A stretch of 37,817 nucleotides of DNA from Alphaproteobacteria bacterium (GTDB lineage Bacteria > Pseudomonadota > Alphaproteobacteria > UBA2136 > UBA6156): positions 1 to 37,817 of the forward strand of contig JAIXZU010000127.1 of assembly GCA_027489415.1 (NCBI GenBank), in the 5' to 3' direction. This document shows positions 7,401-28,433 of the stretch, one piece after another. The first letter of the stretch is position 1. Each line of letters opens with the position of its first letter. The position numbers and the translations under genes were made by a program. The notes under the pieces are model-generated. The model did not search any database, had not been told where the DNA came from, and worked only from the letters and a program-made list of their open reading frames with translations.

Positions 7401-7409
7401 ATGCCGGCC

Positions 7410-9182: not shown

Positions 9183-9213
9183 GGCGGGCGCTTTTAGGCT
9201 TTTACTTTTGGCC

Positions 9214-9678
9214 TTAGTCTTTATGTCCGGCTTTGTTGAGATAGGCGGCAAAGGCGGTCGCTTTCTGCTGCCGCTTTTTCACTTTGCCCACCGAGGCTCT
9301 GCGGCGTGGGCTAATGCCCAGCTCCATTTCTTCACTTTGCGCATCAGCGGCAGCAGCGCGCAATTCGGTTTGCCACAAATTCAGCATGGGCACCTTGGTT
9401 TTAGGGCTGCGCGATATCGCGCCCGCCTTGGTCATTTTCAGCAGCGCATGGTCATAGCGCACATAAGCAATGGCCAAGCGCATAATCGCTGGCGCATTGG
9501 CGGTGCATAAAGTTTCTGCATCGCGCATCTCGGCCACAATTTTTAGCCAATAGCGGCGGGCCGTGGTGCGCCACTCTTTGCCCATCCCGTCATCTTCAAC
9601 ACGGTCAGGAAAAATGCGCGCCCAGGGCGGCTCTTCTAAATCTGCGCCCCCGCCCGAAAGCGTTTCTAGCTTGGCCAT
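9214..9678 (-). CDS. terS: Terminase small subunit, P27 family
   Basis: 154 aa. P27-type pattern (RYWLKIVAEMRDAETL...AIAYVRYD). Sits immediately upstream of terL. Confidence 0.8.
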   Translation of the reverse strand: MAKLETLSGGGADLEEPPWARIFPDRVEDDGMGKEWRTTARRYWLKIVAEMRDAETLCTANAPAIMRLAIAYVRYDHALLKMTKAGAISRSPKTKVPMLNLWQTELRAAAADAQSEEMELGISPRRRASVGKVKKRQQKATAFAAYLNKAGHKD

Positions 9679-9700
9679 TTAAGCCTCAATTTAAGCCTCA
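9677..9700. repeat. Perfect 12-bp tandem duplication ATTTAAGCCTCA x2 spanning the terS RBS and start
   Basis: Read directly: 9677-9688 equals 9689-9700. Confidence 0.9.
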
Positions 9701-9834
9701 TGCTCGGCGGTTGCTTTAAATTTTTGCCCTCGCCGCTAAGGTGCCGCCCGCAGCGAGGGCTATTCCCACGCAAGGTTTTAACGCCTCGCGGCCTTAGGAG
9801 GCTGGGGGGAAATTGCCTATCTCAAAAATTGGTT

Positions 9835-10167
9835 TTAATCCGTTTTTTTATTCCACGGGTGGTTGGGCGCTCGCGGCCGACCTTGTGCGTCAACCCCGTG
9901 CCCAAGAATATTTTTATCAATGCGCCGCGCATGACCAAAGCCACCATCACAGCGCGCCGTTTTGCGTGCATGACAGCGGCGGCAAAGCCAGCGCAAATTG
10001 CTTATATCATCCGTGCCGCCTTCAGCACGGGGTTTTAAATGGTCAAGCGCCATGCCGCTGCCAAAGGGTGCGTCACACATGGCGCAGGGAGCTGGCGGCA
10101 CACGGGCGCGCAATTTCTGCCACGCATGGCCATAGCCACGCGCGGCGCTGGGTGGGCGCTGCGTCAT
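9835..10167 (-). CDS. HNH endonuclease (packaging-associated)
   Basis: 110 aa. Motif DHLKPRAEGGTDDISNLRWLCRRCHARKT. Sits upstream of terS, as in HK97-like cos phages. Confidence 0.85.
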   Translation of the reverse strand: MTQRPPSAARGYGHAWQKLRARVPPAPCAMCDAPFGSGMALDHLKPRAEGGTDDISNLRWLCRRCHARKTARCDGGFGHARRIDKNILGHGVDAQGRPRAPNHPWNKKTD

Positions 10168-10333
10168 GTTGCTGCTGCTGTTGCTAAGTTGAGGCTGCCA
10201 AGTTGTGGCTGGTTTTATTGGGGTTTTGCTAAGGTCTCGGCGCTTGCGCCAAGACGCAAAAATTCACATTACCAAAATACTACCATTGTGCTGCCAGTCG
10301 ATGCAAGTGGCGATTGTGCCACACTGCTAAACC

Positions 10334-10804
10334 TTAGCGGCTATTATCAACATCAGCAGCAATGATGCGCTCAAGATAACTATTCAGCGACATGCCAGCA
10401 TCTTTGGCTTTCGCCGCCGCCGCCTCATGCACAGCGGGTTTAATGCGCAAAGGCACATTGCCCGAGTATCTTTGCAGGGCTTCTGGCGCTGGTATGTGCC
10501 GGCCATTGGCTTTAGCGGCCGCCATCCATGCGGCAAAGGCCAAGCGCGCATCTTGTAACGCGGCCTCTGGCGTGTCGCCATCGCCAGCGCAGTATTTTAA
10601 TTCGGGGTAATAAGCCAAAAAGCCGCCACCCTCAGCTTCGGTAAGCGGCCGCACCACAATACGATACTGCGCGGCCAGCACGCTCACATCTTGGGCGCCA
10701 TCATTGCGTGGCGCGCCCACAGTTTTTTTGCGGCTGCTAATTTTTTTTACCAAAACACGGCGGCCACTCTGCTTAGCGGCTGGTTTTTTTAGTGTCTGTG
10801 CCAT
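10334..10804 (-). CDS. hicB: HicB-family antitoxin (HicB fold plus C-terminal RHH) with basic N-terminal extension
   Basis: 156 aa. Motifs GGGFLAYYPELKYCAGDGDTPEAALQDA and a C-terminal RHH-like LRIKPAVHEAAAAKAKDAGMSLNSYLERI. Confidence 0.75.
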   Translation of the reverse strand: MAQTLKKPAAKQSGRRVLVKKISSRKKTVGAPRNDGAQDVSVLAAQYRIVVRPLTEAEGGGFLAYYPELKYCAGDGDTPEAALQDARLAFAAWMAAAKANGRHIPAPEALQRYSGNVPLRIKPAVHEAAAAKAKDAGMSLNSYLERIIAADVDNSR

Positions 10805-10806
10805 CT

Positions 10807-11037
10807 TTATTCTCCCCCGTCTATAAGGCGCATAAATGCCCGAACATAATAAGGCTTAATTGGCCGATGCGCTGGCACCGTCAATTCGCCACTGGCAAAG
10901 CTAAAAATGCAATGGCTGCCACCATCATGCCGCCAACCAATGCCATAGTGGCTGGCTACGCGCTGCAAATCGGCCAGCTGCCAGTCACCGGCTGGGTTAT
11001 TGCGCATTTTCTCTAGCAGCTTTTGCTTTTGGCTCAT
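10807..11037 (-). CDS. hicA: HicA-family toxin (mRNA interferase)
   Basis: 76 aa counted from the ATG at 11037. Motif GGSHCIF...LTVPAHRPIKPYYVRAF. Its stop lies 3 nt from the hicB start. Confidence 0.7.
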   Translation of the reverse strand: MSQKQKLLEKMRNNPAGDWQLADLQRVASHYGIGWRHDGGSHCIFSFASGELTVPAHRPIKPYYVRAFMRLIDGGE

Positions 11038-11056
11038 GCTTATTTTATATATCAAA

Positions 11057-11068
11057 AGTGATATCACT
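11057..11068. promoter_or_regulatory. 12-bp perfect palindrome AGTGATATCACT within a promoter-like stretch upstream of hicA (candidate HicB operator)
   Basis: The palindrome is read directly. On the minus strand a TTGCTT (-35-like) and a GATATA/TATATA (-10-like) flank it. Confidence 0.45.
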
Positions 11069-11088
11069 GCAAGCAAAAACGCTGCTTT

Positions 11089-11319
11089 TTACGATATTAT
11101 ATTAAGTTTTGTTGGGTTATTGGCTTGGGCGTTTTGGTATTCGGCCATGGCTTTTACCAGCAATGTGCGCAGCTCGCTGCCCGTGCCTTCGGCAATAGTC
11201 TGGCCTTTGGCGGTTAAATAAAACCTGTCACAATTTTGGCTTTTCATAACAAGTGCCGCAATCCCAGCCTCAATAATGGCTTGTGCTAAAGCGCTGGCAG
11301 TTTGTTCATTCATGGTCAT
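11089..11319 (-). CDS. Hypothetical protein
   Basis: 76-aa ORF in the operon, with plausible composition. Confidence 0.45.
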   Translation of the reverse strand: MTMNEQTASALAQAIIEAGIAALVMKSQNCDRFYLTAKGQTIAEGTGSELRTLLVKAMAEYQNAQANNPTKLNIIS

Positions 11320-11342
11320 TGCTTTTCAATCCTTTTCAACTC

Positions 11343-11891
11343 TTACGGCCTTGGCACATGGCCGCCACGCTCGGCCGGCAAGCGCAAAAAATCCGCCACC
11401 TCATCCAAGGCATGGCGCAGCAGCGTAACGCCCTCACGTGGCGCGTAATGGTGCTGGCTGGCCCAATCGCTGGGGGCACCATCGGTAAAGCACACATGCA
11501 CCAACAGCGGCCACAAACGCGAGCTGGTGCCTGCGCATATTTTTTTTAGTTCAATCTCGGCCAAAGCCTGCAAGCCGGTGCCAGCTGGCCTGCTGCCATC
11601 AACCTTGTCGCTCAGCGTGCTGGCAATGTTGGGCGAGCGCCCAGCCCTAAACCACAGCGTAAATAATTTATCACCAGCCAGATATTGCCGGTGGCTGATA
11701 ATGCCGCGCAGCGCCAGCCGCTCAAGCTGCCGTTGGCTTTGCACATAGCGCACCGTCACGGGCTGGCCGCCATCGGGGTCAGCAATGGCCACCAGCGGCA
11801 CCACATCGTGCTGTAGCCGCTCTAGCGTGCCGTAATCGTTTGGTGCGGGCCGATAGCTCGGCTTCCGGGCGCGGCGCAGGCGCTTAGCCAT
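11343..11891 (-). CDS. Hypothetical protein, basic N-terminus (possible DNA-binding/late regulator)
   Basis: The ATG at 11891 overlaps the upstream stop by 8 nt. The longer ORF to 11966 would overlap more. Confidence 0.5.
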   Translation of the reverse strand: MAKRLRRARKPSYRPAPNDYGTLERLQHDVVPLVAIADPDGGQPVTVRYVQSQRQLERLALRGIISHRQYLAGDKLFTLWFRAGRSPNIASTLSDKVDGSRPAGTGLQALAEIELKKICAGTSSRLWPLLVHVCFTDGAPSDWASQHHYAPREGVTLLRHALDEVADFLRLPAERGGHVPRP

Positions 11892-12729
11892 TTCCGCCGC
11901 CTTGTTGGTCAGCTTGCTGCGCCTCTTGTTGGCTTGCCGAATTGGAACCTGACTGAATTTTAGCAAGTTTTGCTAAAAGCGCGGTTTTGCGACCGGCAAA
12001 AGCGTTAATCAGCGTTTGCTGAAAAACATCGGCAGACTCTGGGTTAAAACCTTTTTCAGCCTTTTCCAGCTCGGCAATTTCGTCCTGTATTTTTTCAATG
12101 GCCGTTTTTTGCGCGGGCGTTGGTGGCAATGCAGCAGGCGCAAGCATGGCTTGTTCGGCGGCCAACAGTGCTGCCAGCAACCTACGGCGCAAATCGAAAC
12201 GCTCACCACACGCGGCGCGCAGCTCGCTGATGGTCGGATAAAACGTCTGCGCTTGCCGCAGCGCGGTGCAGGCTTGGCGCACCACATCGGCGGGATACTC
12301 GGCCAGATCATCGGCCATCACCGCAAGCGATAGCGTCATATCATCGCCGACCTCACTGCGCCGAGCCATAACCGCCCGCAGCTTGGCAAGCTCCTGCACG
12401 ATTAAATCATGCGCAGCGGGCTTACAAAAAAACTCAAGCGCCCGCACCAGCGGTCTATCTTCTTCGCGTAAATCCAAAACTTTCCATTCGGTGTAGCCGT
12501 CAAAATCATAGCCGTTGGCGGTGTAATATTCACGGCGCACCACTTGCTTGTTTTTTAGCCGCGATGACCCGAGCTGCTGCTGCAACAATGCTATCAGTTC
12601 GCTGTCGTCCAGCGTTGCTCCAGTTTGCAGCCGAGCCGCTAAAGCCCGTAATTTGGCTATCGGGCTTGATGGCAAATACGCCAGCCCAGCCGCGGGTGAT
12701 TGATTGTTCGATAACTGATTTTGCGTCAT
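11884..12729 (-). CDS. Hypothetical replication-module protein
   Basis: 281 aa. A GGAG lies 6 nt upstream of the ATG at 12729. Follows the replisome organizer. Confidence 0.55.
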   Translation of the reverse strand: MTQNQLSNNQSPAAGLAYLPSSPIAKLRALAARLQTGATLDDSELIALLQQQLGSSRLKNKQVVRREYYTANGYDFDGYTEWKVLDLREEDRPLVRALEFFCKPAAHDLIVQELAKLRAVMARRSEVGDDMTLSLAVMADDLAEYPADVVRQACTALRQAQTFYPTISELRAACGERFDLRRRLLAALLAAEQAMLAPAALPPTPAQKTAIEKIQDEIAELEKAEKGFNPESADVFQQTLINAFAGRKTALLAKLAKIQSGSNSASQQEAQQADQQGGGNG

Positions 12730-13429
12730 GGCCAGCTCCCATTAATTTTTCAAGTTCTGCAACAATTCCGCGTTTGGCGCGGTCGGTCATGGGTGCCCGC
12801 AAGCGCCTTCGGTGCTCCTCAAAATCTTTCCAGTCGTCAGGCGATATCCAGTCGGGCAAAACAAAATCAGATTTTTTTGGCTTGGGGTCGCTAGCGCGCT
12901 TCGCGCGCTTTGAATCTATTACGTCAGTAATAGATTCTATCTCTGTATCTGTATCTGTATCTGTATCTGTATCTGGGGGCGTTACTGTAACGTTACACGG
13001 CGTTACATTTCCGTCACCAGTTGTTACGCCAACAATTTCAGCGCCATTGTTTTTGCTTTTTTGCTTTTCGCGCCAACGCTTTACCCTGTCATTGCTGGTG
13101 TCGCTCACATATTGCCTCTTGTTCCACGCCAGCGGCACATTGTCCTCACTAATAAGGCCGCGCGCCATAAATCGCGCTTTGGTTTGCGCCCAATCATCCG
13201 CGCTAATGCGCAACTGAAACGCCAACTCGTCATCATGTAACACGCTGTTTTGTGCTGCGTTTGTTACATCACCTGTTACATGTAACGTTACATCGCCGTC
13301 ACACGGTGTTACACTTTGCGACCAAACGCACAGCAGCATCACAAAGCGGCGCTGGTCTGCCTCGCTCATCATCTGCACTTTTGGGTCTGTCGCAAATTCT
13401 GCGTAAAGTCTAAACCAAGGCTTACCCAT
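12530..13429 (-). CDS. Replisome organizer / replication initiator-like protein
   Basis: 299 aa. The N-terminus MGKPWFRLYAEFATDPKVQMMSEADQRRF resembles Phage_rep_org_N. It contains iteron-like DNA repeats. The C-terminal 66 codons overlap the next gene. Confidence 0.65.
   Translation of the reverse strand: MGKPWFRLYAEFATDPKVQMMSEADQRRFVMLLCVWSQSVTPCDGDVTLHVTGDVTNAAQNSVLHDDELAFQLRISADDWAQTKARFMARGLISEDNVPLAWNKRQYVSDTSNDRVKRWREKQKSKNNGAEIVGVTTGDGNVTPCNVTVTPPDTDTDTDTDTEIESITDVIDSKRAKRASDPKPKKSDFVLPDWISPDDWKDFEEHRRRLRAPMTDRAKRGIVAELEKLMGAGHDAKSVIEQSITRGWAGVFAIKPDSQITGFSGSAANWSNAGRQRTDSIVAAAARVIAAKKQASGAP
12945..12974. repeat. Hexanucleotide microsatellite (GTATCT)x5 encoding (Asp-Thr)5 in the organizer linker
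   Basis: Read directly from the sequence. Confidence 0.95.
12981..13027. repeat. Iteron-like cluster 1: GTTAC/GTAAC motifs
   Basis: GTTAC at 12981, 12992, 13002 and 13023. GTAAC at 12987. GTCAC at 13013. Confidence 0.6.
13263..13312. repeat. Iteron-like cluster 2: GTTAC/GTAAC motifs
   Basis: GTTAC at 13263, 13275, 13287 and 13308. GTAAC at 13282. GTCAC at 13298. It shares the TGTAACGTTACA palindrome with cluster 1. Confidence 0.6.
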
Positions 13430-13667
13430 GACACACCTCTTCCCGCGCAGTGGCGGCCGCTAATAAATTATTTTTGCGGTTTTGTTGCAGCTTTGCTTGG
13501 CGCAATTGCGCACGGTCAAGCGCGGCCTCTGCCCGCAGCACTTCGGCATTGGCTCTGCGCACCCGCTCGAGCGCGGTGTTTTTATAGCCATGCGGCGCTG
13601 CCTCATAAGCCGCCCGTGCGGCCTCGTAAAAGGCCAGCGCTTTTTGCAAGCGTTTAGCGTGGCTCAT
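13422..13667 (-). CDS. Hypothetical small coiled-coil protein
   Basis: 81 aa. AAGGAGG RBS and an ATGA overlap with the upstream stop. Confidence 0.55.
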   Translation of the reverse strand: MSHAKRLQKALAFYEAARAAYEAAPHGYKNTALERVRRANAEVLRAEAALDRAQLRQAKLQQNRKNNLLAAATAREEVCHG

Positions 13668-14500
13668 GGCTGGCCTCCTTTTTTATTTATAGCCCGCCGC
13701 TCGCGCTCGAGCCGTTCGGCCATGGCCTCTAGCCTAATGCTTTTAAACACGCGCTCTTGGTAGGCTTTCAGCTCTTTTTCCTTCAGCACGCTTTCGGCGC
13801 GGTATATTGGCTCGCCTTCGCTCAAAATGCGGCTGATGCGCTGCACAGCTTCAATCAGCGCATGCGCCCAATTCTGCCAGTCAAATGGCTCAGGCCGCTT
13901 TTTGCGCAGGTTTTTTCTGGGCTTGGTGTGGGTGTTTTTTAGATTGCAGGCGGCTTTCCCCGCCCCATGTTTTTTCGGCATAGGGTCACTCCGTTTGGTT
14001 GGCATGACGCCACCCACGAAGCTTTGTATGCCGCGCTGGTGGCGGGAGCTACAAACCAGTCCAAACGGTGCCTGGCGGACTTCTTCCCCTTTCGGGTATT
14101 GTATCCGTCGCACTCCCGCCATAGGGGGGTTTACGGGCACAAAAATACCGCCATGCACTACGCTGGCGGTTGCCCGCCGTTTGGTATGTGGAGTTCTTAG
14201 CTCCACCGCTGGCAAGGCCAACGGCACGGGCAGAGTGCCCAAATAAACCGAATCAGTCAAGTGAGGTAAAAGGGGGGCTTTTGCGCCGCCAAAATCATAC
14301 GCTGGTAATGCGCTGGCATTGCCAATGCATATGCGCTGGCATGATTGTGCTACAACACGCGGCAAGCGGGCATGCAGGCGCGACCAGCCCACCGCATGCC
14401 CGCCCACCTTGGCGCGGCTCACGCCAGCGCCAGCCAGCCCTGCAAGGCTGGGCGATAGGTGCGCGGCCACCACGGCCGCCGATATGTTTATACCGCTCAT
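13664..14500 (-). CDS. Hypothetical protein; only the C-terminal ~113 aa (from the ATG at 14005) look protein-like
   Basis: The ORF is open for 278 codons and has an ATGA overlap at 14500. Codons 1-165 use many ATA/AGA/CGA/GGA/CTA codons and coincide with dense RNA-type complementarity. Confidence 0.4.
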   Translation of the reverse strand: MSGINISAAVVAAHLSPSLAGLAGAGVSRAKVGGHAVGWSRLHARLPRVVAQSCQRICIGNASALPAYDFGGAKAPLLPHLTDSVYLGTLPVPLALPAVELRTPHTKRRATASVVHGGIFVPVNPPMAGVRRIQYPKGEEVRQAPFGLVCSSRHQRGIQSFVGGVMPTKRSDPMPKKHGAGKAACNLKNTHTKPRKNLRKKRPEPFDWQNWAHALIEAVQRISRILSEGEPIYRAESVLKEKELKAYQERVFKSIRLEAMAERLERERRAINKKGGQP

Positions 14501-14835
14501 GATTGGCCACCATTCTGGCCACCATTGGGATTTTGCCCCACAGCCTTACTACCATTCGCAATCCGCTCAAGCAGCGATGTCGCCAGCTGCAAACGTGTGG
14601 CCATACCAGCGGCCACCACGGCGCGATTAATAAAGCTCTCGCGGTCGATTACGAGCGTGACGAAGCCAAGCCTGAGCCAGACATCAAATAAGCCGCGCTC
14701 AAAGCCGCAGCCGCGCCAGCTATGGGCTTCGATGAGGAGGCTGCGCGGCAACTTGCGCGCGCTGGCCGTGGCCGCCGGCCGATGGCTGGCGGGTTCGGTG
14801 TGGTGGTTGTTTGTTTGAGTGGCATCGGGCGGCAC
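14497..14835 (-). CDS. Hypothetical protein
   Basis: GTG start at 14835 with AAGGAG 8 nt upstream. An in-frame TAA lies just upstream of the start. Confidence 0.55.
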   Translation of the reverse strand: MPPDATQTNNHHTEPASHRPAATASARKLPRSLLIEAHSWRGCGFERGLFDVWLRLGFVTLVIDRESFINRAVVAAGMATRLQLATSLLERIANGSKAVGQNPNGGQNGGQS

Positions 14836-15272
14836 AGCGATGGCTCCTTATCTTCAATGGTGGGGGGGAGGTGGGTGGGTAAGGTGGGTTTGGCCGAAGG
14901 GGTAGGGCCTGAATTAAGCTCAGACGCCGAGCCAACCAACAGCGCCAGCGCTTGCTGCGCTGCTGCCATTTGTCGCTCGGTTAGTTGGACAGGTGCGCGT
15001 CCGGCCAAGGCCAGCACCGCCAAAAACACTTCATCAAATCGCCGGATAAGGTCAATCAGCACCACGCCCGATGGCGCGTTGCGGCCTTCCAGTAAGTTTT
15101 TCATGGTCTCTTCATTGCGCCGCGTCAGCCGGGCCAGCTCTTTCGGGCTGCCACTCACGCGCCGCAGCGCGGGCACCAGCGCCTCAATCAGCTCAATCGG
15201 CACCGTCACATGCGGGTCTGTGGCGGCAAGCAGCGCAGCTGGTGGGGCGGCAAATGGCGCGGGCATGCTCAT
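14649..15272 (-). CDS. Hypothetical early regulator-like protein (helical N-terminal ~120 aa; low-complexity tail)
   Basis: The ATG at 15272 forms an ATGA overlap with the cro-like stop. The tail overlaps the next gene by 187 nt. Confidence 0.5.
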   Translation of the reverse strand: MSMPAPFAAPPAALLAATDPHVTVPIELIEALVPALRRVSGSPKELARLTRRNEETMKNLLEGRNAPSGVVLIDLIRRFDEVFLAVLALAGRAPVQLTERQMAAAQQALALLVGSASELNSGPTPSAKPTLPTHLPPTIEDKEPSLCRPMPLKQTTTTPNPPAIGRRPRPARASCRAASSSKPIAGAAAALSAAYLMSGSGLASSRS

Positions 15273-15622
15273 GTGCAAGCCTCGCTATTGGCGGCCAATT
15301 CTTGGCCCTCATTGCGGGGCCAATTTTTGGCCAGCTGCGGCCGTGCAATTTTTGCCACTATTTTTCGGGCAGACACTCGTGGGCGCTTTGGTGCACTGTC
15401 AGCGCAGGAGGCAATCAAACCATGAGCCAAAGCATAAGCGTCATAATGATGCTCGGCCGTCACACGGCCATTAGAATATGCGCGCAGGCGCAGCTCTATC
15501 TCTGGCCGGGGCACACGCTTCCCGCGCCGATAATAGGCAATTGCCGCCGCTGTGGTGTGCACAATACGTGCGACATGGGCATCGGTGTGGCCGCGCTCGG
15601 CCATGATTTTTGCAAGCTTCAT
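15269..15622 (-). CDS. Cro-like HTH regulator
   Basis: 117 aa counted from the ATG at 15622. The HTH-like segment is HVARIVHTTAAAIAYYRRGKRVP. It is divergent from the repressor gene. Confidence 0.65.
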   Translation of the reverse strand: MKLAKIMAERGHTDAHVARIVHTTAAAIAYYRRGKRVPRPEIELRLRAYSNGRVTAEHHYDAYALAHGLIASCADSAPKRPRVSARKIVAKIARPQLAKNWPRNEGQELAANSEACT

Positions 15623-15625
15623 GGT

Positions 15626-15669
15626 GCAGATATCAACATTGTGTTGAACTTCAGTCAACAAGAATCTGC
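15626..15669. promoter_or_regulatory. PR-like promoter plus operator: on the minus strand, TTGACT (15658-15653), a 17-nt spacer, then TGATAT (15635-15630). Operator palindrome TCAACAttgTGTTGA at 15633-15647, an extra half-site at 15655-15660, and an outer inverted repeat GCAGAT/ATCTGC.
   Basis: Read directly. A near-identical cassette recurs at 18957-18985. Confidence 0.65.
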
Positions 15670-15706
15670 TGATGCCGCTGATTTCGATATTTTGGGATAG
15701 TGCGCT

Positions 15707-16114
15707 ATGAATAACCGAATTAAACATTTCCGCAAAAAAGTCGGCATGAGCCAAGTAAAACTGGCTGAGATGGCTAATACATCACCACAACAGATAAGCC
15801 ATCTTGAGCAAGGTATGCGCCGCCTGACCTATGACTGGGCTGAGCGCTTGGCGCGGGTGCTTAAAGTACACCCAGCCGATTTATTTGTTGAGTCGCCAAA
15901 TGCCTCTACCTTGCCTATATCCGATAGCGCCAAACACATTATGGCCGAAGGCGTGATGGTGCTGCTTGACCATATGCGCCGCGCCAATAACGCTACCCCT
16001 CCACTAATTATGCATCGTCGCTTTCTGCAGGCCTTCGAGCGCTGCCAGACTAAAAACTACACAGAGCCACAAAAAATCCGCGATGTGTTCGAGAGCTACC
16101 TCGATGCCGAGTAA
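15707..16114 (+). CDS. XRE-family HTH repressor (cI-like, no S24 peptidase domain)
   Basis: 135 aa. Motif IKHFRKKVGMSQVKLAEMANTSPQQISHLEQGMRRLT. Divergent from the cro-like gene. Confidence 0.8.
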   Translation: MNNRIKHFRKKVGMSQVKLAEMANTSPQQISHLEQGMRRLTYDWAERLARVLKVHPADLFVESPNASTLPISDSAKHIMAEGVMVLLDHMRRANNATPPLIMHRRFLQAFERCQTKNYTEPQKIRDVFESYLDAE

Positions 16115-16709
16115 CAATAATGAAATAGACCACCGCATTTTGGTGGATGATCTGTTGCAAATAGAAAAGCACGTTATTAAAGAAGACGTTGTTAGCAGCT
16201 GGCAAACAATGAGACAGAACGGGTGTAGGCGTGAGGAGCGCCACCAAAATCGCAAGGGCAAAAAATTCGGACGGCAGCCATCATTATTTAACCTTAGCAA
16301 CTACGTGATAACATTGCCGCTTGTTTCGCCGGATATTTCGTCACTTGATTTGCAGCTCAAGATTAACTATTACAAACAGCCATATGATTCGCCCTCTTTC
16401 ACAATTAACCTTCTTTATCTCGGCATTAAACCTTGTATGACACCAATTTGGCGTGTTGAATTTAACAACAAGAAACACAGCAATAGATCGCCCGGACGAC
16501 CACACGGCCTGCCGGATTACGTCTGCAGGCCGAATTATTCAAGCTGGGAGTGGCATAGGCCCGATTGTGAGGATGACTACATACCGCATAATATGAGGTT
16601 TGCCCAAAATCTTCCGGACAAACTAAAAACATTTACACAGGTTATTAAGTGGTTCAGTAGTAGTATAAGACTTAATGGTCTTGCTGAAAATTTGTTAGAG
16701 CCGCTATAA
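16104..16709 (+). CDS. Hypothetical protein co-transcribed with the repressor
   Basis: The ATG at 16104 overlaps the repressor stop. 201 aa. AT-richer DNA. No family recognised. Confidence 0.6.
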   Translation: MPSNNNEIDHRILVDDLLQIEKHVIKEDVVSSWQTMRQNGCRREERHQNRKGKKFGRQPSLFNLSNYVITLPLVSPDISSLDLQLKINYYKQPYDSPSFTINLLYLGIKPCMTPIWRVEFNNKKHSNRSPGRPHGLPDYVCRPNYSSWEWHRPDCEDDYIPHNMRFAQNLPDKLKTFTQVIKWFSSSIRLNGLAENLLEPL

Positions 16710-16712
16710 CGA

Positions 16713-17492
16713 ATGGTGGGGGTCATGCAAAAAAATAGTCTTGATGCCGCCGCTCAGGCGGTTAACCGAACCTTTGGCGCTGAGCTGCGTGGCAACGAGC
16801 TTACAGTCGATACAGCGGTTTTGTATCCTTGTAATGGTCTTGTGCGCATTAAAATTTCTAAAACACACGAAAGTGGTTTTATCGTGACCGATGAATCTGG
16901 GGCGTTTTACTCTATGCAAAAACTAGGGCACGACATAACCGACCAAGAGGTACCTTGGCAACGTTTTCTGGACAAACAAAAGAAAAAATATTCATTCGAC
17001 TACAACGATGTTAGTGGTAACATTTACACCCGCGCCACATCTATTGATGAAATGCTTATGAGTATTGTGTCGGTGGCAAATGTGTCTGCAGCTCTTGCTG
17101 AATACTCTATATCACACATCAACACTAAAAGGCGCGCAGAGTTGACAGATGCCGTTTTTACGATGGTAAATAAATATTATCACTCAAACAACATTTATCG
17201 TCAGGCTGAAGTTACCGGCAACACGGGCAAAAGCTATAAAATAGACATAGCTCTTGAAGATCGATTTTATGTTGATATCATCACTAATTTTAAGGCCAGC
17301 GATACTGTTGGCTCAACCTTTGCGCGACATTTTGATATTGGTGAGAACAGCCAATATAAAAATAAGACCTTTGTAGTTTTTGATAAAAATACCCCGCCCG
17401 ACTCACACTCAAGAAGCTTGTTATCACGAGTAACGCACTTGCAGCCGGTTACAGCTTTTGAGCAACGCGTTAAGCAGTCAGCAGCGGCTTAA
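16713..17492 (+). CDS. Hypothetical protein co-transcribed with the repressor (weak resemblance to the DUF1828/DUF1829 layout)
   Basis: 259 aa. An alternative start at 16725 is preceded by GGTGGGGG. It begins 3 nt after the upstream stop. Confidence 0.6.
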   Translation: MVGVMQKNSLDAAAQAVNRTFGAELRGNELTVDTAVLYPCNGLVRIKISKTHESGFIVTDESGAFYSMQKLGHDITDQEVPWQRFLDKQKKKYSFDYNDVSGNIYTRATSIDEMLMSIVSVANVSAALAEYSISHINTKRRAELTDAVFTMVNKYYHSNNIYRQAEVTGNTGKSYKIDIALEDRFYVDIITNFKASDTVGSTFARHFDIGENSQYKNKTFVVFDKNTPPDSHSRSLLSRVTHLQPVTAFEQRVKQSAAA

Positions 17493-17668
17493 CCTATAAT
17501 ACGCCGCGCCCGCTCTGCCTCGCGCCGCTCAATTTGCTTGGCTGCCCGGCGCGCCACTTGTTTAACGTGCTCTTCTTGCAAGCCCAGCTGCCACACCAGT
17601 GCCAAAGCTTCGAGCGCTTCATCGTAGCTAATTTTTTTTGTTTTTTCGCTCACATCGCAGCAACCCAT
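17489..17668 (-). CDS. Hypothetical small protein
   Basis: The ATG at 17668 is preceded by GGGAGG. A TTGAAG-17-TATAAC promoter-like element lies upstream on the minus strand. Its stop overlaps the convergent gene stop. Confidence 0.4.
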   Translation of the reverse strand: MGCCDVSEKTKKISYDEALEALALVWQLGLQEEHVKQVARRAAKQIERREAERARRIIG

Positions 17669-17854
17669 ATCATGCCTCCCCATATCATACCCCCATGTTC
17701 ATTTGCTTCGCTGGCGTTATAAATGTTCGCTATTTATTCTTCAAGCAAAAATACAATCCGGCCACGAAAAAGAAACTATATTGCCTCATTTTTATGATGG
17801 TTAAACAACCAAGAGCTGTAAATGAGCAGCTGAGCCGTGGCACGCTGTGGGGAT

Positions 17855-18181
17855 TTAGTCTTTATATAGCTTTTCGGCGATATCAATATACTCTTTAATC
17901 TCGTCCAATATTTCTTGGTCTTCGCACAATAAAGCTATCTTTTTATCAAATTCGGCACGGGTCATTTTTTTATTTCTGATAAGGCCGCCAAAAGCCTCCT
18001 CAAGGAATGCCGCGCCATAAAACTCTGTGCCATCCAGCTCAATTGTGACTTTGTCCGCAGCTTTAAGTTTTTCTAAAATCATGTCGCGGAAATGCTCGCC
18101 GCTAAAATCGGCATGCGCGGCAAATCGACCAGACGGAAAGCGCGAAAAATCTCGCGCTACGTTAATCTTAGCTTCGGTCAT
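17855..18181 (-). CDS. STAS-like domain protein (DUF4325 type)
   Basis: 108 aa. Motif INVARDFSRFPSGRF...FSGEHFRDMILEKL...VTIELDGTEFYGAAFLEEAFGGLIR. Confidence 0.65.
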   Translation of the reverse strand: MTEAKINVARDFSRFPSGRFAAHADFSGEHFRDMILEKLKAADKVTIELDGTEFYGAAFLEEAFGGLIRNKKMTRAEFDKKIALLCEDQEILDEIKEYIDIAEKLYKD

Positions 18182-18776
18182 TTTTAGGGTGGGTTACGTT
18201 TACGGTCTGTGGCAACAGGCTATCAAACGTGCAAATATGGCATAACATATAGTGATAAAAGCTTAGCCTATATAACTCGGTCGAGCCGTGCGCAAACCTA
18301 ACCTCATTTTCACAAATCAGGTCAAGGGCGCGCAGCACCGCTGGTTCGTCGCGCTCTATTTCAAGCCGCTCATGCTTGGCTTTATCAATCATCGCGGCGC
18401 TTAAATTATCAGGCTCAAGCATTATCTGCAGGTCATGGTAGCGGCGCTTAAAATAGCCGGCCACCACCTCGGCCCTGCCGGGCTCAAACACCATGTCTAA
18501 AAGGCTAATAAAGCTCACCAGCAGCGCCGCACCAATAGCCATAATTTCATATTGCAGCCAAACTGTTGTCGTGGTGCCTGCGCCAAGAAAAACCACGGCA
18601 AATTTAAAAAACCGCGCCACATTGCCCAAAAACCGCTCACGCTTAGCGTAATATCTGCGCCCGCGCTCGGTATTTCTGCGCAGGGCCCAAAGCTGGTCTT
18701 TTATGGCTTCTTCGGTGGACGGTCGTCCCCCTTCGGTCGTGGCATCGTCGGCGCAGTGTTCATTATGTTTGTCCAT
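18168..18776 (-). CDS. Two-TM membrane protein, SLATT-like
   Basis: 202 aa. A charged helix (RRYYAKRERFLGNVARF) is followed by two hydrophobic helices and a helical tail. It overlaps the STAS-like gene by 14 nt. The RBS is poor. Confidence 0.55.
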   Translation of the reverse strand: MDKHNEHCADDATTEGGRPSTEEAIKDQLWALRRNTERGRRYYAKRERFLGNVARFFKFAVVFLGAGTTTTVWLQYEIMAIGAALLVSFISLLDMVFEPGRAEVVAGYFKRRYHDLQIMLEPDNLSAAMIDKAKHERLEIERDEPAVLRALDLICENEVRFAHGSTELYRLSFYHYMLCHICTFDSLLPQTVNVTHPKNDRS

Positions 18777-18956: not shown

Positions 18957-18985
18957 TTGACTATATATCAACATAATGTTGATAT
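18957..18985 (+). promoter_or_regulatory. PL-like promoter plus operator: TTGACT (18957-18962), a 17-nt spacer, then TGATAT (18980-18985). Operator palindrome ATCAACAtaaTGTTGAT at 18967-18983.
   Basis: Read directly. The half-sites and spacing match the cassette at 15630-15658. Confidence 0.65.
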
Positions 18986-19014: not shown

Positions 19015-19335
19015 ATGCGTATTACCCCAGACAAAAAACTCAAAGCGCTGATTGAACGGATTGAGCGCCTTAAAGAAAACCAAAAGGCTATCGCCACCGA
19101 CATCAAAGAAGTTTTTTCCGAGGCCAAGGCCGGTGGCTTCTGCCCCAAAGTTATGCGCCTGCTTATCCGCCAGCGCGCCATGCCAGCTGATTTGCTTGAG
19201 GAGCAGCAAGAGCTGCTTGATACGTATGCTGCGGCAATGGAGTGGGATAGCACGCCGCTCGCTAAGGCCGCCGCTCGCGACGGGCAGAAAAGCAAAGCCA
19301 GCAGTGGCGATGCGGCCGTGCCAGCAGCAGCATAG
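19015..19335 (+). CDS. DUF2312 / GapR-like DNA-binding protein
   Basis: The ATG at 19015 follows a GGAGA. Motif LIERIERLKENQKAIATDIKEVFSEAKAGGF...LLDTY. Confidence 0.75.
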   Translation: MRITPDKKLKALIERIERLKENQKAIATDIKEVFSEAKAGGFCPKVMRLLIRQRAMPADLLEEQQELLDTYAAAMEWDSTPLAKAAARDGQKSKASSGDAAVPAAA

Positions 19336-21671: not shown

Positions 21672-22052
21672 ATGAAGGCGCTCTCAATAAATCAGCCTTG
21701 GGCTTGGCTTATAGTCAACGGCTATAAAAACGTCGAAAACCGCAATTGGCCAACAAATTACAGAGGGCCAGTGCTTATTCATGCGGGTAAAAAATATGAC
21801 GATGACGGCGATGAGTGGATAAGGTCTGCCTTCCCGCAAATCCCATTGCCAAATAAATCAGCAATAGAACGCGGCGGCATTGTCGGCAGGGCTGTAATCA
21901 CAGACTGCGTAACCGCTATGGATAGCGACTGGTTTTTCGGCAAGTTTGGCTTTGTTTTGAATAAAGCCGAGCCTTGCGAGATGGTGCCATGTCTGGGCGA
22001 GCTTGGATTTTTTAGGCCAGACCTCTTTAGCAAATATAAGGAGATGAAATGA
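21672..22052 (+). CDS. ASCH domain protein
   Basis: 126 aa. Motif MKALSINQPWAWLIVNGYKNVENRNW. Confidence 0.8.
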   Translation: MKALSINQPWAWLIVNGYKNVENRNWPTNYRGPVLIHAGKKYDDDGDEWIRSAFPQIPLPNKSAIERGGIVGRAVITDCVTAMDSDWFFGKFGFVLNKAEPCEMVPCLGELGFFRPDLFSKYKEMK

Positions 22053-22588
22053 AAGAGCGCCCAATCATATTTAGCGCGTCAGATGTTCGCGCCATTTTGG
22101 AAGGCCGCAAAACCCAAGCTCGGCGGATTATAAAGCCACAGCCAACTAGTCTTGGCGATAAACTTAAAGCCCTTATGCGCTACCGGATCGGCGACCGGCT
22201 ATGGGTGCGCGAGACTTGGCAGACTCACATACCAGCGCCAGATACCAATGGCGACTGCGCCACATCAATTATTTATAGGGCTGATAAAAAAAGCTACGCG
22301 AGCAGTTGGCACTCACCAATCTACATGCCGCGCTGGGCAAGCCGCATCACCCTTGAAATAACGCGCAAACGCGTCGAGCCGCTGCATAGAATAAGCCAGT
22401 CCGATGCTATCGCTGAAGGTGCGCCGCCAAGCCATAGTTCAATTGACAAAATAAGCCGTGAGTTTGGTTATGCAGATTTTAGCCGCTCATGGTTTGCCCA
22501 GCTATGGCAATCAATACACGGCGACAAATCATGGCACGAAAATCCGTGGGTGTGGGTGATTGAGTTCAAAAAATTGGAGGGCAAATAA
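22049..22588 (+). CDS. ASCH-like protein
   Basis: 179 aa. Motif IIFSASDVRAILEGRKTQARRI...GDRLWVRETW. ATGA overlap with the previous gene. Confidence 0.6.
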   Translation: MKERPIIFSASDVRAILEGRKTQARRIIKPQPTSLGDKLKALMRYRIGDRLWVRETWQTHIPAPDTNGDCATSIIYRADKKSYASSWHSPIYMPRWASRITLEITRKRVEPLHRISQSDAIAEGAPPSHSSIDKISREFGYADFSRSWFAQLWQSIHGDKSWHENPWVWVIEFKKLEGK

Positions 22589-22589
22589 A

Positions 22590-22772
22590 ATGACCGACTA
22601 CGAAAGGGCCTTGATTGATTGCCTTAAAATCATAAAGAACAGAATAGAAGTTTATGAGCGCAAGATTAAAAACGAAGGTAGGCCATCAATGGGCGATGAA
22701 TATAGATTTGCCATAGCTACGCTTGATATTGCCGCTGGTGAAATCAAAAAACTTTTTACAGAAGGCAAGTAA
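22590..22772 (+). CDS. Hypothetical small protein
   Basis: The ATG at 22590 lies 9 nt after a GGAGG. Confidence 0.45.
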   Translation: MTDYERALIDCLKIIKNRIEVYERKIKNEGRPSMGDEYRFAIATLDIAAGEIKKLFTEGK

Positions 22773-22857
22773 AATTATGTTTTTGCCATTTAGCGAGGAA
22801 GTTAAGCAAAAAAAGACGTGGCAAACAATTCTCATGAAACAAAAAAATGGAGATAAA

Positions 22858-23103
22858 ATGACCATCAAAGCAGAGCCAGCGGATAATTACGACGACCTGA
22901 AAAGGCAGTTTTATGCCCTTAGAAATATTGTTAATTCTCAATCCATACAAATACAACATTATATGCAATTAAGTTACAGCGTAGGAGAAAGGCACCTTGC
23001 CGAGCTAAGGGCGCTACTCGAAAGCGAAAAGGCAATGAATGCTCAGCTCACCCAAGAACTGGATGGGGCAAAAAATGCACTCCAAGAAAGCGCCGACCAT
23101 TAG
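22858..23103 (+). CDS. Hypothetical coiled-coil protein
   Basis: The ATG at 22858 follows a GGAGA. An alternative start is at 22777. Confidence 0.45.
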   Translation: MTIKAEPADNYDDLKRQFYALRNIVNSQSIQIQHYMQLSYSVGERHLAELRALLESEKAMNAQLTQELDGAKNALQESADH

Positions 23104-23115
23104 CCGCTTACCCGC

Positions 23116-23331
23116 TTGCTCAAAACAACCGAAAAGCTAACCCATATACTAGCACCGCTAAACCCAACTAAAGCCATGCTTTCTGCGGGTAATTATGCCT
23201 GTTTTGATTCCCTTGATAACGGCACAGTTATAGACGCAGAAGATATTTATAGGGCGATGATTAAAGAGTGCAAAAAAGAGGCTGAATACAATGAAATTAT
23301 TGTCCGAAAAATGCAAAAACAGGGTGGTTGA
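23116..23331 (+). CDS. Hypothetical protein
   Basis: TTG start in the ORF track, with an alternative ATG at 23176. Confidence 0.35.
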   Translation: MLKTTEKLTHILAPLNPTKAMLSAGNYACFDSLDNGTVIDAEDIYRAMIKECKKEAEYNEIIVRKMQKQGG

Positions 23332-23333
23332 TA

Positions 23334-23636
23334 ATGGACACACAAACAACAATTTTTATTTTGTGCATGATTAGTGGTGTCGCAACAATCGCTGTAATTA
23401 TTTATGCCGAGTTTTTCCGTAAAGTAAAAACAGCAATAATGCCTGTTGAGGTTTTGCCGTTTATAGACGGCTTTACATTTGTTGCTGTTACAAAAAGCAA
23501 AAAGTACTGGCCGGTGCAGCTTATTAAAAACAAATCTGGGCTACATGTTTTTTTGCTTAGGCCCGGCATGCCAGAAAGAGTCGATTTTTTTAACAAAGAA
23601 GAGTTCATCGGCTGGCTGCCAATGCCGGAAGTGTAG
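23334..23636 (+). CDS. Hypothetical membrane-anchored protein (C-terminal WLPMPE, DUF551-like ending)
   Basis: The ATG at 23334 follows an AGGGTGG. N-terminal TM helix. Confidence 0.45.
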   Translation: MDTQTTIFILCMISGVATIAVIIYAEFFRKVKTAIMPVEVLPFIDGFTFVAVTKSKKYWPVQLIKNKSGLHVFLLRPGMPERVDFFNKEEFIGWLPMPEV

Positions 23637-23643
23637 GCGTGAT

Positions 23644-23805
23644 ATGACCACTATTGTTTTATCGCTTGGGGTTTATTCAATCTACTTTTGGTATTTTTTT
23701 GGCAGAATGCTAGTTGCACATTTTTTATTTGGCTGTGCGCTTGGCTCTGGTTTAGGGCTTATTTTAGGTTATTTAATCAATGTATTGAGGGATTGCCAAA
23801 GATGA
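23644..23805 (+). CDS. Hypothetical small two-TM membrane protein (53 aa)
   Basis: ATG at 23644. The sequence is strongly hydrophobic. Confidence 0.4.
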   Translation: MTTIVLSLGVYSIYFWYFFGRMLVAHFLFGCALGSGLGLILGYLINVLRDCQR

Positions 23806-23940
23806 GTAATCCGGTTTTTCCGGTCAGCTGGATAAGGAAAGCCGCAGCGTATCAGTTAAGACAGAGGCTGCGACCATAATTTTTATCATATCATGGTTTG
23901 GCAATCTGGTAAATAATCAGCTCCAATACATCGCTTGGCG

Positions 23941-25137
23941 CTACGGCTTGCGCCCAATCAGCCCATCTAAGTAATCCGCCCACTCCTGCATCATCTTGGT
24001 GCGCTCGGCGATAAAGGCCGCGCGGTCATAGGCGCGGTCAACTTTATTGGATGGGTAGTGCGCCAGCTGCCGGTCTGGCACTTCGTGGCGATAGCCCAGC
24101 TCCTGTTTGATGGTGCTCAGCGCGAGAGCCCTAAAGCCGTGGCCAGTGGCCTTGCCCTTATAGCCCATGCGTTTCAGCGCCATTAAAATTGTGCCATTGC
24201 TCATGCCTTTATTGGCACGGGTGGCCGACGGCAGCACAAAACCACTCTCGGTGCGGAACATCTCAAGCGACCTAAGCACCGCCACAGCCTGCCGCGACAA
24301 GGGCACAATGTGCTCGCGCCGCATCTTCATGCGCTCGGCGGGGATTGTCCACAGCGCCCGCTCAAGGTCAATCTCCGACCAGCGTGCATTAATCAGCTCG
24401 CTTGTGCGCACAAATGTCAGCAGCAGCAGTTTCAGCGCATGACGGGTGAGGGGATAGAGCCGCGCCTCATTGCGCTCGAGCTTGGCCAAAAACTCGGGCA
24501 GATGCTCCAGCTGCAGCGCGGTGAAGTGGCCGCGCACCACAGGCGCCAGCGCGCCGCGCAGATCATTGACTGGGCTTGCGGTGATGCGACCGGTCGCCAC
24601 GGCATAGCGCAACACCTGGGCGATTATCTGGCCAAGCCGATGCGCCAGCTCATTCGCGCCACGCTTTTCCACGCGCCGCAGCGCCTGCAGTAAAATCACG
24701 GCCGTCAGCTGCGCTACGGGTATAGCACCAATAAAGGGGAAAGCATCGCGCTCGAGCCGGTTAAGCAATGTGCTGGCATGGCCCTCAGACCAACGCTTAA
24801 TGTTTTTCTCGTGCCACTCACGGGCTACAGCGGCGAAGGTATCGTTGCTTTGCGCGGCAAGCTGCAGCTTGCGCTTTTGCTTCTCCACGCCGGGGTCGAT
24901 GCCATCGGCAATCTGGCGCCGCGCCTCAAGCGTTTTGGCGCGGGCATCGGCCAGACCTAGCACCGGATAAACGCCAAGCGCCAGCAGCCTTGGCCGGCCA
25001 GCAAAGCGATATTTCATGCGCCAATAGCGCGAGCCATTCGGTCGAATTTCAAGGTATAGACCATGGCCATCATAGAGGCGCAGCGGCTTATCGGTTGCTT
25101 TGGTTTTTTTAATTTGCGTGTCGGTAATTTGTGGCAT
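23941..25137 (-). CDS. int: Tyrosine integrase, P4/CP4-57 type with N-terminal arm-binding (DUF4102-like) domain
   Basis: 398 aa counted from the ATG at 25137. Motifs LYDGHGLYLEIRPNGSRYWRMKYRFAGR, and C-terminal HGFR...LAH...Y. Confidence 0.9.
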   Translation of the reverse strand: MPQITDTQIKKTKATDKPLRLYDGHGLYLEIRPNGSRYWRMKYRFAGRPRLLALGVYPVLGLADARAKTLEARRQIADGIDPGVEKQKRKLQLAAQSNDTFAAVAREWHEKNIKRWSEGHASTLLNRLERDAFPFIGAIPVAQLTAVILLQALRRVEKRGANELAHRLGQIIAQVLRYAVATGRITASPVNDLRGALAPVVRGHFTALQLEHLPEFLAKLERNEARLYPLTRHALKLLLLTFVRTSELINARWSEIDLERALWTIPAERMKMRREHIVPLSRQAVAVLRSLEMFRTESGFVLPSATRANKGMSNGTILMALKRMGYKGKATGHGFRALALSTIKQELGYRHEVPDRQLAHYPSNKVDRAYDRAAFIAERTKMMQEWADYLDGLIGRKP

Positions 25138-25216
25138 GTTGGGATACATCACTCGGCGGCTAAGGGATGGTATCCCATCTTGTATCCTAAAATCGCTGCC
25201 CTTACTAGCCCCACCT

Positions 25217-25308
25217 TGCACCACCCTGCACCACTGGCCCGTGCAAATACTCAATCTTTACAGCGCTTCCGCGCCCGCCTTGCACCACCTTGCACCACAC
25301 TGCACCAC
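25217..25308. repeat. Five TGCACCAC direct repeats in two 10-bp-phased clusters (candidate integrase arm sites)
   Basis: Copies start at 25217, 25227, 25281, 25291 and 25301. Confidence 0.6.
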
Positions 25309-26463: not shown

Positions 26464-26665
26464 AATCGCTCGCTTATTCTAAGCCCGCCCTTGCAGGGTG
26501 ACGGGTCGGCCAATCACGGCCAAGTTGGTCGAGCAGTGTCATCGCTGCGGCTTACGGTGTTCGCGCACCGTATCCCCCGTCTTGGCCGAGCGCAGGCGCC
26601 ACCGCTTTGCGGTCACGCTAGTCGGCCAATGGCAGGAAATCTTCACAACATCACATCACATCATT

Positions 26666-26863
26666 TCAGTCACAAACTGCGCGCCACGCTTCGTTATTTT
26701 CCAACAGCGCACGCCTTGACGCGGGCGACAGCGCCAATAACTCCGGCGCGGTCAGGCGCATGGGCGACCACGCCAAGCAGCAGGCTTTGGCATTATTCGT
26801 GCCGCTGCCAGTCGCGGCGCAGCCGCTCAAGCACAGCAGCATCAGGCACAGCATTAAGCGCAT
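26666..26863 (-). CDS. o-spanin (Rz1-like lipoprotein), overlapped architecture
   Basis: 65 aa counted from the ATG at 26863. Signal peptide plus lipobox (MRLMLCLMLLCLSGC). It starts inside the preceding gene in another frame. Confidence 0.6.
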   Translation of the reverse strand: MRLMLCLMLLCLSGCAATGSGTNNAKACCLAWSPMRLTAPELLALSPASRRALLENNEAWRAVCD

Positions 26864-27038
26864 CGCGCACCTCTTTATATTCGTCAGCAATTTGCACCTG
26901 CTCAGCCATGGCATCGCGCTCTTGCTCAAGCATGGCACCACGCCTGCCAGCCAGCCACGCTAGCAATGGCGGCGCCAGCTTATCCAGCAGGCGCGCCAGT
27001 GCCTCTAGTAACGCGGCCACGGCCTCGCCGCGCATCAT
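26793..27038 (-). CDS. i-spanin-like (Rz-like) protein
   Basis: 81-aa helical protein containing the o-spanin start. The N-terminal TM segment is not convincing. Confidence 0.45.
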   Translation of the reverse strand: MMRGEAVAALLEALARLLDKLAPPLLAWLAGRRGAMLEQERDAMAEQVQIADEYKEVRDALNAVPDAAVLERLRRDWQRHE

Positions 27039-28421: not shown

Positions 28422-28433
28422 GGGTATTTGCTC

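Follow-up and report, generated by a model that had tools for sequence, protein, structure and literature searches.

The 37.8-kb window analyzed here (positions 1-37,817 of contig JAIXZU010000127.1, assembly GCA_027489415.1, from an alphaproteobacterium) has the appearance of a temperate phage genome with a GC content of about 55%. Directly behind the gene for a cI-like repressor, this window carries two further open reading frames, ORF A and ORF B, that form an AT-rich cassette (16104-17492, Table 1). We interpret this cassette as a divergent, mainly alphaproteobacterial branch of the candidate two-gene system PDC-M24 that resides as a moron in the immunity region of the phage, and we consider, with moderate confidence, that it most likely serves in defense of the lysogen or in an abortive response of the toxin-antitoxin (TA) type. 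The gene pair is already known as a catalogued candidate, and it does not represent a new kind of system. New are the divergent alphaproteobacterial branch, which current models miss, the strict two-gene synteny, and the fusion to the repressor gene.

An earlier note on this DNA, made from the letters alone, had described a 201-aa ORF that starts at 16104 and overlaps the repressor stop codon, a 259-aa ORF that begins 3 nt after the first one ends, and the appearance of a three-gene operon. All three descriptions hold at the level of the sequence. The ATG at 16104 lies inside the repressor gene, and ORF A overlaps the 3′ end of this gene by 11 nt. An alternative in-frame ATG for ORF A exists at 16083; the N-termini of homologues align instead with 16104. 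The first ATG of ORF B (16713) is indeed found 3 nt past the stop of ORF A. A second ATG at 16725 is preceded by a G-rich stretch (GGTGGGGG) that may be a ribosome-binding site, and this start, which gives a protein of 255 aa, fits the N-termini of homologues better. Public gene calls contain ORF A with 201 aa, and ORF B with both 255 aa (P0001) and 259 aa (P0071). A scan of the plus strand revealed no promoter-like site in 15707-16104 and no terminator-like site in 15707-17492. Taken together, the common strand, the overlap, the short gap and the lack of intervening promoter- or terminator-like sites make a single repressor-A-B transcription unit the simplest reading, and we infer from this layout that the three genes are co-transcribed.

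ORF A and ORF B share one reading frame, and only TAA-CGA separates them before the ATG at 16713 (16707-16715). We examined whether the two could represent a split gene or be joined by read-through, and rejected this idea because the corresponding genes of relatives overlap by 4 nt in differing frames and are never fused. The common frame in the window looks coincidental. Since both proteins have distant homologues and yield confident AlphaFold2 models, we conclude that A and B are real genes rather than chance ORFs.

The composition of the cassette sets it apart from the rest of the phage. The GC content of 16104-17492 is 0.426, compared to 0.561 for the rest of the window, which places the cassette in the second percentile among segments of equal size. 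The GC content at third codon positions (GC3) is likewise low, at 0.41-0.47 versus 0.62, as is codon adaptation, with an index of 0.52 versus 0.65-0.76 when the structural genes serve as reference. These values agree with the impression by eye, recorded in the earlier note, that this DNA is AT-richer than the phage backbone. The proposal in the same note that the cassette is a horizontally acquired moron is supported by this AT-richness and by the mobility of the gene pair described below.

Close relatives of A and B are rare. A nucleotide and tblastn search of 50,697 phage records, using the region, A, B and a typical B relative as queries, returned a single non-significant match (E 5). A word-indexed search of 5.8 billion proteins with A and B recovered only the query proteins themselves, and sequence searches of the PDB with single proteins and with family profiles of A and B gave only noise. 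By way of a full HMMER pass with a concatenated A+B query against 1.84 billion representatives (E ≤ 1e-3), we obtained about 50 relatives of B (245-255 aa, 20-29% identity) and eight relatives of A (∼165 aa), whose alignment covers residues 76-192 of A. With a profile built from the A-like proteins, we then retrieved 14 proteins.

To describe the genomic setting of these relatives, we looked up six A-like and five B-like proteins plus two plasmid matches, which afforded 14 contexts, not counting duplicates of the window. In each of these 14 independent contexts, a gene for an A-like protein lies directly upstream of a gene for a B-like protein on the same strand, usually with a 4-nt overlap at the junction. 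A hidden Markov model (HMM) search of all ORFs in the loci identified the A-like proteins with E values between 2e-9 and 5e-71, and the B-like proteins with 2e-38 to 9e-91. The surroundings are diverse. In L014/L015 the pair is located downstream of an HTH_31 repressor gene that diverges from a cro-like gene, as in the window. A 38-kb circular Caenibius plasmid with phage-like genes (L020, NZ_CP081845.1) contains the pair near divergent helix-turn-helix (HTH)/cro-like genes. L013 and L017 are contigs of small and mostly unannotated genes, with HTH_17 genes in L017. In L016 and L021 the pair adjoins IS1595 transposase genes, and L021 is a plasmid (NC_019364.1). In L005-L008, L009-L012 and L018, on contigs whose assignment is either Hyphomonadaceae or an unclassified alphaproteobacterium, the pair sits among ordinary metabolic genes, in L018 with an Mrr-type restriction gene (Mrr_cat) at a distance of ∼3.6 kb. 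In all ten loci measured, the GC content of the pair falls short of that of its flanks by 5-13 points, and a search for a third gene common to the loci found none. This combination of diverse contexts, AT-richness and lack of a common third gene shows that A-B is a self-contained, horizontally mobile two-gene cassette. The A-like ORFs of the two plasmids (L020 4486-4953, HMM E 5e-25; L021 4405-4953, 3e-16) are absent from the plasmid gene tables that we used; the A-like family may be under-annotated in public data, or the PLSDB table may simply omit these ORFs.

The sensitive profile and structure searches that the earlier note had proposed as a check connected the pair to PDC-M24, DUF6978, DUF1828/DUF1829 and PD-(D/E)xK-like folds. 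The link to PDC-M24 comes mostly from B. PDC-M24B models of PADLOC are matched by 28 of the 31 aligned B-family sequences (best E 7e-15), and also by the B-like neighbors in L005 and L018. PDC-M24A, the cognate partner of PDC-M24B, is the only match of the A-like proteins of L020 and L022 among 5027 PADLOC models. For the window cassette itself, membership in PDC-M24 is suggested transitively, by way of the relatives of B. PDC-M24 is described as a two-gene cassette (FAM_00129>>FAM_00065) and is one of 145 candidates for phage defense that were proposed by guilt-by-embedding, given the occurrence of relatives within BREX, DISARM or type I restriction-modification (RM) loci (Payne et al., bioRxiv 10.1101/2024.01.29.577857). 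In the literature, we found PDC-M24 only as an entry in a supplementary table.

Window B has no Pfam match at E ≤ 1, including PF08861 and PF08862, and direct scans of PADLOC and NCBIfam were equally without a match. Its one direct match is to phrog_1960 (3.5e-10), for which no function is listed. Within the B family, DUF1828 is recognized in 11 of the 31 sequences (best 1.3e-5) and DUF1829 in eight (best 4.3e-6). An AlphaFold2 model of B, computed with 30 relatives as alignment, reached a predicted local distance difference test (pLDDT) score of 92.5 and a predicted template modeling (pTM) score of 0.85. In this model, the N-terminal residues 1-105 form an alpha/beta domain, which is followed by a long helix (107-152) and a C-terminal beta-beta-beta-alpha-beta unit; the order of secondary structure elements between residues 107 and 241 fits the alpha-beta-beta-beta-alpha-beta core of restriction endonucleases. 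The top fold match among viral proteins (BFVD) is a 255-aa DUF1828 domain-containing protein (E 3.9e-13, full length), followed by PD-(D/E)XK proteins and, weakly, by KilA-N proteins (TM-score ∼0.27, root-mean-square deviation >12 Å). In the PDB, Foldseek placed Can2/Card1/VC1899, AF1548, NucS/EndoMS and Ecl18kI/PspGI at the top, all of which contain domains of the restriction-endonuclease fold (E values between 1e-3 and 6e-2; probability 0.99-1.0 for the best of these; TM-score ∼0.3), with a weak match of the N-terminal half to the DNA-binding domain of T4 MotA. Thus, the loose resemblance to a DUF1828/DUF1829 layout that the earlier note had seen in the second protein was correct at the family level, as judged from the relatives and from the BFVD match.

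The conserved polar residues of the B family are T30, Y34, P35, S36, D56, N119, S121, G165, S167, D174, D184, S194, D204 and D220, with D204 invariant. Window B keeps every family-conserved Asp (D56, D174, D184, D204, D220), of which D174 is located on strand 2 and D184 on strand 3. As modeled, B combines a nuclease fold with an acidic cluster, and its catalytic competence is uncertain.

ORF A gave no significant match in direct scans of Pfam, PADLOC, NCBIfam and PHROGs; its alignment to the Pfam family DUF6978 (E 0.15, 12.8 bits) falls below the gathering score of 29.6 bits. Among 23 aligned A-like proteins, eight match DUF6978 at E ≤ 0.1 (best 3.3e-4) and five match phrog_2017 (1e-7). Both families are catalogued without an assigned function. 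The earlier note had named no family with confidence for either protein, in agreement with direct scans that remained empty apart from phrog_1960 for B. As divergent relatives of PDC-M24, the two proteins are not entirely unknown. The AlphaFold2 model of A (18 relatives as alignment, pLDDT 84.7) shows, at residues 66-120, an antiparallel meander of four strands that precedes a conserved C-terminal region. Residues 39-49 are predicted with low confidence and lie within a basic insertion (∼40-65) that is unique to window A. Neither A nor B contains a transmembrane segment, as judged by the lack of any 19-residue hydrophobic stretch scoring at least 1.6.

Across the 23 A-like proteins, N127 and W148 are invariant, and R117, H146, N151, L170, W183 and F184 are nearly invariant. 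Window A has S146 and H151, alone among the aligned proteins. We examined the idea that A is a His-Me finger protein, since Serratia nuclease and EndoG matched weakly over 64 columns (probability <0.1), and dropped it because the spacing from H146 to N151 does not fit and distant A-like proteins lack these histidines. We also rejected the idea that window A is uniquely mutated at an H-x-H...DN motif, since the divergent A-like proteins of L022 and L023 are devoid of this motif too. The lack of these histidines in L022 and L023 indicates that the changes in window A reflect divergence and are no proof of decay.

The cassette is embedded in what looks like an immunity region. The upstream gene, which the earlier note had called a cI-like repressor, encodes an HTH_3 protein that also matches phrog_3 and phrog_5823 (transcriptional repressor/regulator, ∼1e-11), and it diverges from a cro-like gene with a weak HTH_26 match (E 0.21). 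Two outward promoters of near-identical sequence, one on each strand, each contain the palindrome TCAACA-N3-TGTTGA, of which exactly two mismatch-free copies exist across the window. We regard these sites as the putative operators of the phage, of the PR and PL type. The occurrence of twin outward promoters with a common operator-like site, and an HTH gene between them, points to an immunity region of the lambda PL/PR-cI type, in which the HTH_3 protein probably acts as the repressor. The repressor gene, ORF A and ORF B all lie between the two promoters, and the plus-strand site marks the far boundary of the region. On the minus strand, the TGATAT -10 hexamer ends only 7 nt before the cro-like ATG (15622), which implies a nearly leaderless messenger RNA. 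Opposite the cro-like ORF, public annotation contains a plus-strand gene of 92 aa (15422-15700); likely at most one of the two is real, and the promoter geometry favors the cro-like gene.

How might the cassette work? Linked to the repressor gene at its 3′ end, it would be expressed together with the repressor and hence in lysogens. It could then protect the lysogen against other phages, or act as a TA-like abortive response. In this scheme, B would bind and possibly cut DNA, using an N-terminal DUF1828 domain with weak fold similarity to KilA-N and MotA-CTD, and a C-terminal DUF1829 domain with a PD-(D/E)xK fold and the conserved Asp cluster. A would be a soluble partner that senses infection or restrains B. 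The assignment of B as the effector is suggested by its fold. An alternative role for B as a DNA-binding sensor or partner is suggested by a missing catalytic lysine and by the precedent of HipAD (DS-6), a validated two-gene defense system in which DS-6B consists of DUF3037 and DUF1829 (PMC13092281). For the DUF1829 protein of HipAD, a role as antitoxin-like partner has been proposed, and contact with DNA is predicted somewhat less strongly (PMC13092281).

Several observations weigh against a defense function for the cassette, or against the details of this scheme. Window A and window B themselves match no PADLOC model (B none at E ≤ 1), and neither window A nor most of the A-like proteins have a PADLOC match even at E ≤ 10; the connection to PDC-M24A consists of two weak matches, by the A-like proteins of L020 (E 0.002) and L022 (E 0.004). 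The PDC systems, including PDC-M24, are explicitly presented as candidates (10.1101/2024.01.29.577857), and the PDC-M24 entry brings no mechanism. A recognizable defense gene is nearby in one of the 14 contexts (the Mrr gene of L018), and none of the 14 pairs is embedded in a BREX, DISARM or RM locus, with many of the contigs being short. The pair of L014 is separated from the repressor gene by 160 nt and that of L020 lies on the opposite strand, which shows that coupling to a repressor is not a trait of the family. The model of A retrieved nothing from the PDB by Foldseek with an E value better than 3.6 and hence no informative fold match. For B, the Foldseek TM-scores are low (∼0.2-0.35) at a sequence identity of ∼10%. 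The position of the (D/E)xK lysine, two residues past D184, holds Val or Ile in all but one of the 31 sequences, and no Lys, Glu or Gln is conserved anywhere across the 31 sequences of the B family, which makes a nuclease activity of B doubtful. Finally, in HipAD the DUF1829 protein serves as the partner rather than as the effector (PMC13092281).

A further-reaching interpretation, which we regard as doubtful, would make A-B a working two-component anti-phage system of an uncharacterized type. In such a system, A, with a fold that has no counterpart in the PDB and a conserved core of the form H-x-N...W...R, would function as a new kind of sensor or enzyme; B, a PD-(D/E)xK protein devoid of the lysine, would act on DNA by a noncanonical route; and the fusion to the repressor gene would restrict defense to lysogeny, so that the pair would be a soluble, DNA-directed functional analogue of RexAB.

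Among the alternatives to a defense cassette, an addiction module is possible, although we assign it only a minor share of the probability. The pair would then stabilize the mobile element that carries it, be it a prophage, a plasmid or an island, with one protein being toxic and the other neutralizing it. Consistent with such a role, all 14 contexts show a strict pair of small genes whose stop and start codons overlap, these genes occur on plasmids (L020, L021) and beside insertion sequence (IS) elements, the pair is AT-rich and mobile, and B has a nuclease-like fold. On the other hand, scans of Pfam, PADLOC and NCBIfam identified no recognizable antitoxin DNA-binding domain and no known toxin family in A or B, and proteins of ∼165 and ∼250 aa exceed the size of most type II TA components. 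Since many TA systems act as abortive-infection systems, this interpretation is also compatible with defense.

The pair could also be a module for DNA metabolism or a selfish nuclease module, of the repair, recombination or homing-endonuclease type, that spreads itself without any role in defense. The PD-(D/E)xK-like fold of B with its matches to NucS/EndoMS and restriction enzymes is consistent with this idea, as is the presence of the pair at many unrelated sites where it is always AT-richer than the host DNA. The B family, however, has no conserved catalytic lysine, and the listed contexts share no obvious insertion site (flanking repeats and target sites were not searched). In addition, homing endonuclease genes are normally single genes, in contrast to the pair described here, and relatives of the pair were catalogued via their embedding in defense loci. 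On balance, we consider a module of this type unlikely.

Very unlikely, in our view, is a role as an accessory of the lysis-lysogeny switch, in which A-B would be an antirepressor or a modulator of induction or immunity. This idea draws on the location of the pair within immunity regions of the window, L014/L015 and L020, and on the weak fold matches that link the N-terminal half of B with KilA-N proteins and the T4 MotA domain, given that KilA-N-type domains are found in some antirepressor-like phage proteins. Scans of Pfam and PHROGs gave no match to an Ant, KilAC, BRO or peptidase family, and the KilA-N matches carry the low TM-score and high deviation given above. The pair adjoins IS1595 on a plasmid (L021), and in L005-L008, L009-L012 and L018 it stands alone among metabolic genes with no phage gene called within ∼5 kb. 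Such stand-alone chromosomal copies argue strongly against a role that is tied to a phage switch.

Least probable of all is that the cassette of this phage is a decaying, nonfunctional remnant. In favor of decay, none of the other 23 aligned A-like proteins diverges as far as window A, in which Ser and His replace the near-invariant H146 and N151; window A also has the extra low-confidence basic insertion and lacks the conserved C-terminal tail, and codon adaptation is low. Against decay, both ORFs are intact with confident models, window B retains all family-conserved Asp residues, and the A-like proteins of L022 and L023, which also lack these histidines, still have intact B genes as their partners. 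Four sequencing runs gave assemblies with the identical sequence, which is uninformative with respect to selection.

Table 1. Coordinates of the A-B cassette, the immunity region and other features of the 37.8-kb window
Feature	Position	Strand	Remarks
ORF A, 201 aa, soluble, distant relative of PDC-M24A/DUF6978/phrog_2017	16104-16709	+	stop codon at 16707-16709
ORF B, 255 aa (259 aa from ATG 16713), divergent DUF1828 + DUF1829	16725-17492	+	related to PDC-M24B, phrog_1960
cI-like repressor, 135 aa, N-terminal HTH_3, no peptidase domain	15707-16114	+	Pfam HTH_3 2.2e-12; TAA at 16112-16114
cro-like small HTH gene, 117 aa from ATG 15622, divergent from repressor	15269-15622	-	ORF 15269-15754; role from position
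PR-like early promoter, TTGACT-17-TGATAT	15629-15657	-	embedded operator-like palindrome TCAACATTGTGTTGA (15633-15647)
PL-like early promoter, TTGACT-17-TGATAT	18957-18985	+	embedded palindrome TCAACATAATGTTGA (18968-18982)
ORF, 64 aa	17489-17683	-	end overlaps stop of ORF B by 4 nt
DUF4325/STAS-like gene, 108 aa	17855-18181	-	1e-13; 14-nt overlap with 202-aa gene
202-aa protein, hydrophobic segment ∼72-99	18168-18776	-	phrog_11791 1e-22; weak SLATT_1 0.0015
Late/replication-like large ORFs	1-15278 and 25663-37817	-	
Plus-strand gene block	15707 to ∼23100	+	
Integrase gene	23941-25254	-	

The immunity region also contains a set of accessory genes on the minus strand (17489-18776) that is convergent with A-B. 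This set has no match in PADLOC and may represent another conflict module that is expressed in the lysogen. The PL-like promoter precedes an operon that starts with a GapR-like gene (ATG 19016) and also includes an AlpA-like gene. The first gene of this operon (19016-19335, +) carries a GapR_DNA-bd annotation in Pfam, as recorded for an identical public contig. Among nucleoid-associated proteins, GapR is typical of alphaproteobacteria, and the presence of its gene fits the alphaproteobacterial origin of the A-B relatives.

Outside the immunity region, a second AT-rich island with a GC content down to 0.40 is located at ∼22000-24000, from where the plus-strand early operon ends up to the integrase gene, and includes a 126-aa ORF (22723-23103, GC 0.396). 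This island may be a further moron, or else the region of the attachment site. A search for tRNA genes found none in the whole window. The Rfam model sRNA-Xcc1 (RF02221) matches at 14033-14120 on the minus strand over its full length (54.9 bits compared to a gathering score of 53, E 2.7e-7). Since this match is located inside a 278-aa ORF (13664-14500, -), that ORF may not be a real gene.

If the cassette does defend lysogens, it would provide a first function for the pair of PDC-M24/DUF6978 and DUF1828-DUF1829 proteins, which PADLOC and PHROGs list without a function. The strict pairing, the small size and the clear genetic setting make this cassette easily testable.

Among known systems, PDC-M24 resembles the cassette in that two genes follow each other on the same strand in the order A-then-B, as in the window and in 14 of 14 contexts, and in that the lengths of the PADLOC profiles, 151 for A and 255-256 for B, are close to the sizes of the proteins described here. 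It differs in its setting, since none of our 14 contexts lies inside a BREX, DISARM or type I RM locus. The two-domain DUF1828 + DUF1829 proteins (phrog_1960) with upstream partners similar to DUF6978/phrog_2017 share with B the phrog_1960 match and a common two-domain fold, with the difference that window A and window B remain below the Pfam thresholds. HipAD has in common with the cassette a DUF1829 domain in a two-gene system. Its partner protein is a HipA-family kinase, and HipAD contains neither a DUF1828 domain nor an A-like protein. Can2/Card1, NucS/EndoMS, AF1548 and Ecl18kI are similar to B in their two-domain layout with a C-terminal restriction-endonuclease fold. They differ in that the B family lacks the conserved (D/E)xK lysine, and no CARF domain was recognized in B.

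The arrangement in the window recalls, finally, lambda cI-rexA-rexB, as pointed out in the earlier note. In lambda, rexA and rexB are located downstream of cI and form a superinfection exclusion operon that is expressed in the lysogen, and RexB is a polytopic membrane protein. RexA and RexB families are not among the Pfam, PHROG and PADLOC matches of the window proteins, and A and B differ from RexA and RexB in that they share no sequence or fold similarity with them, contain no transmembrane segment and include, in B, a nuclease-like fold. The likeness is one of position and not of homology: in both phages two accessory genes follow right after the repressor gene on the same strand, between the outward early promoters, as far as the layout of the DNA can tell. 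Defense cargo beside prophage repressors is well known, both from lambda rexAB and from other repressor-adjacent systems, and the A-B cassette, if it protects lysogens, would be a further example of such cargo wired to a prophage repressor.

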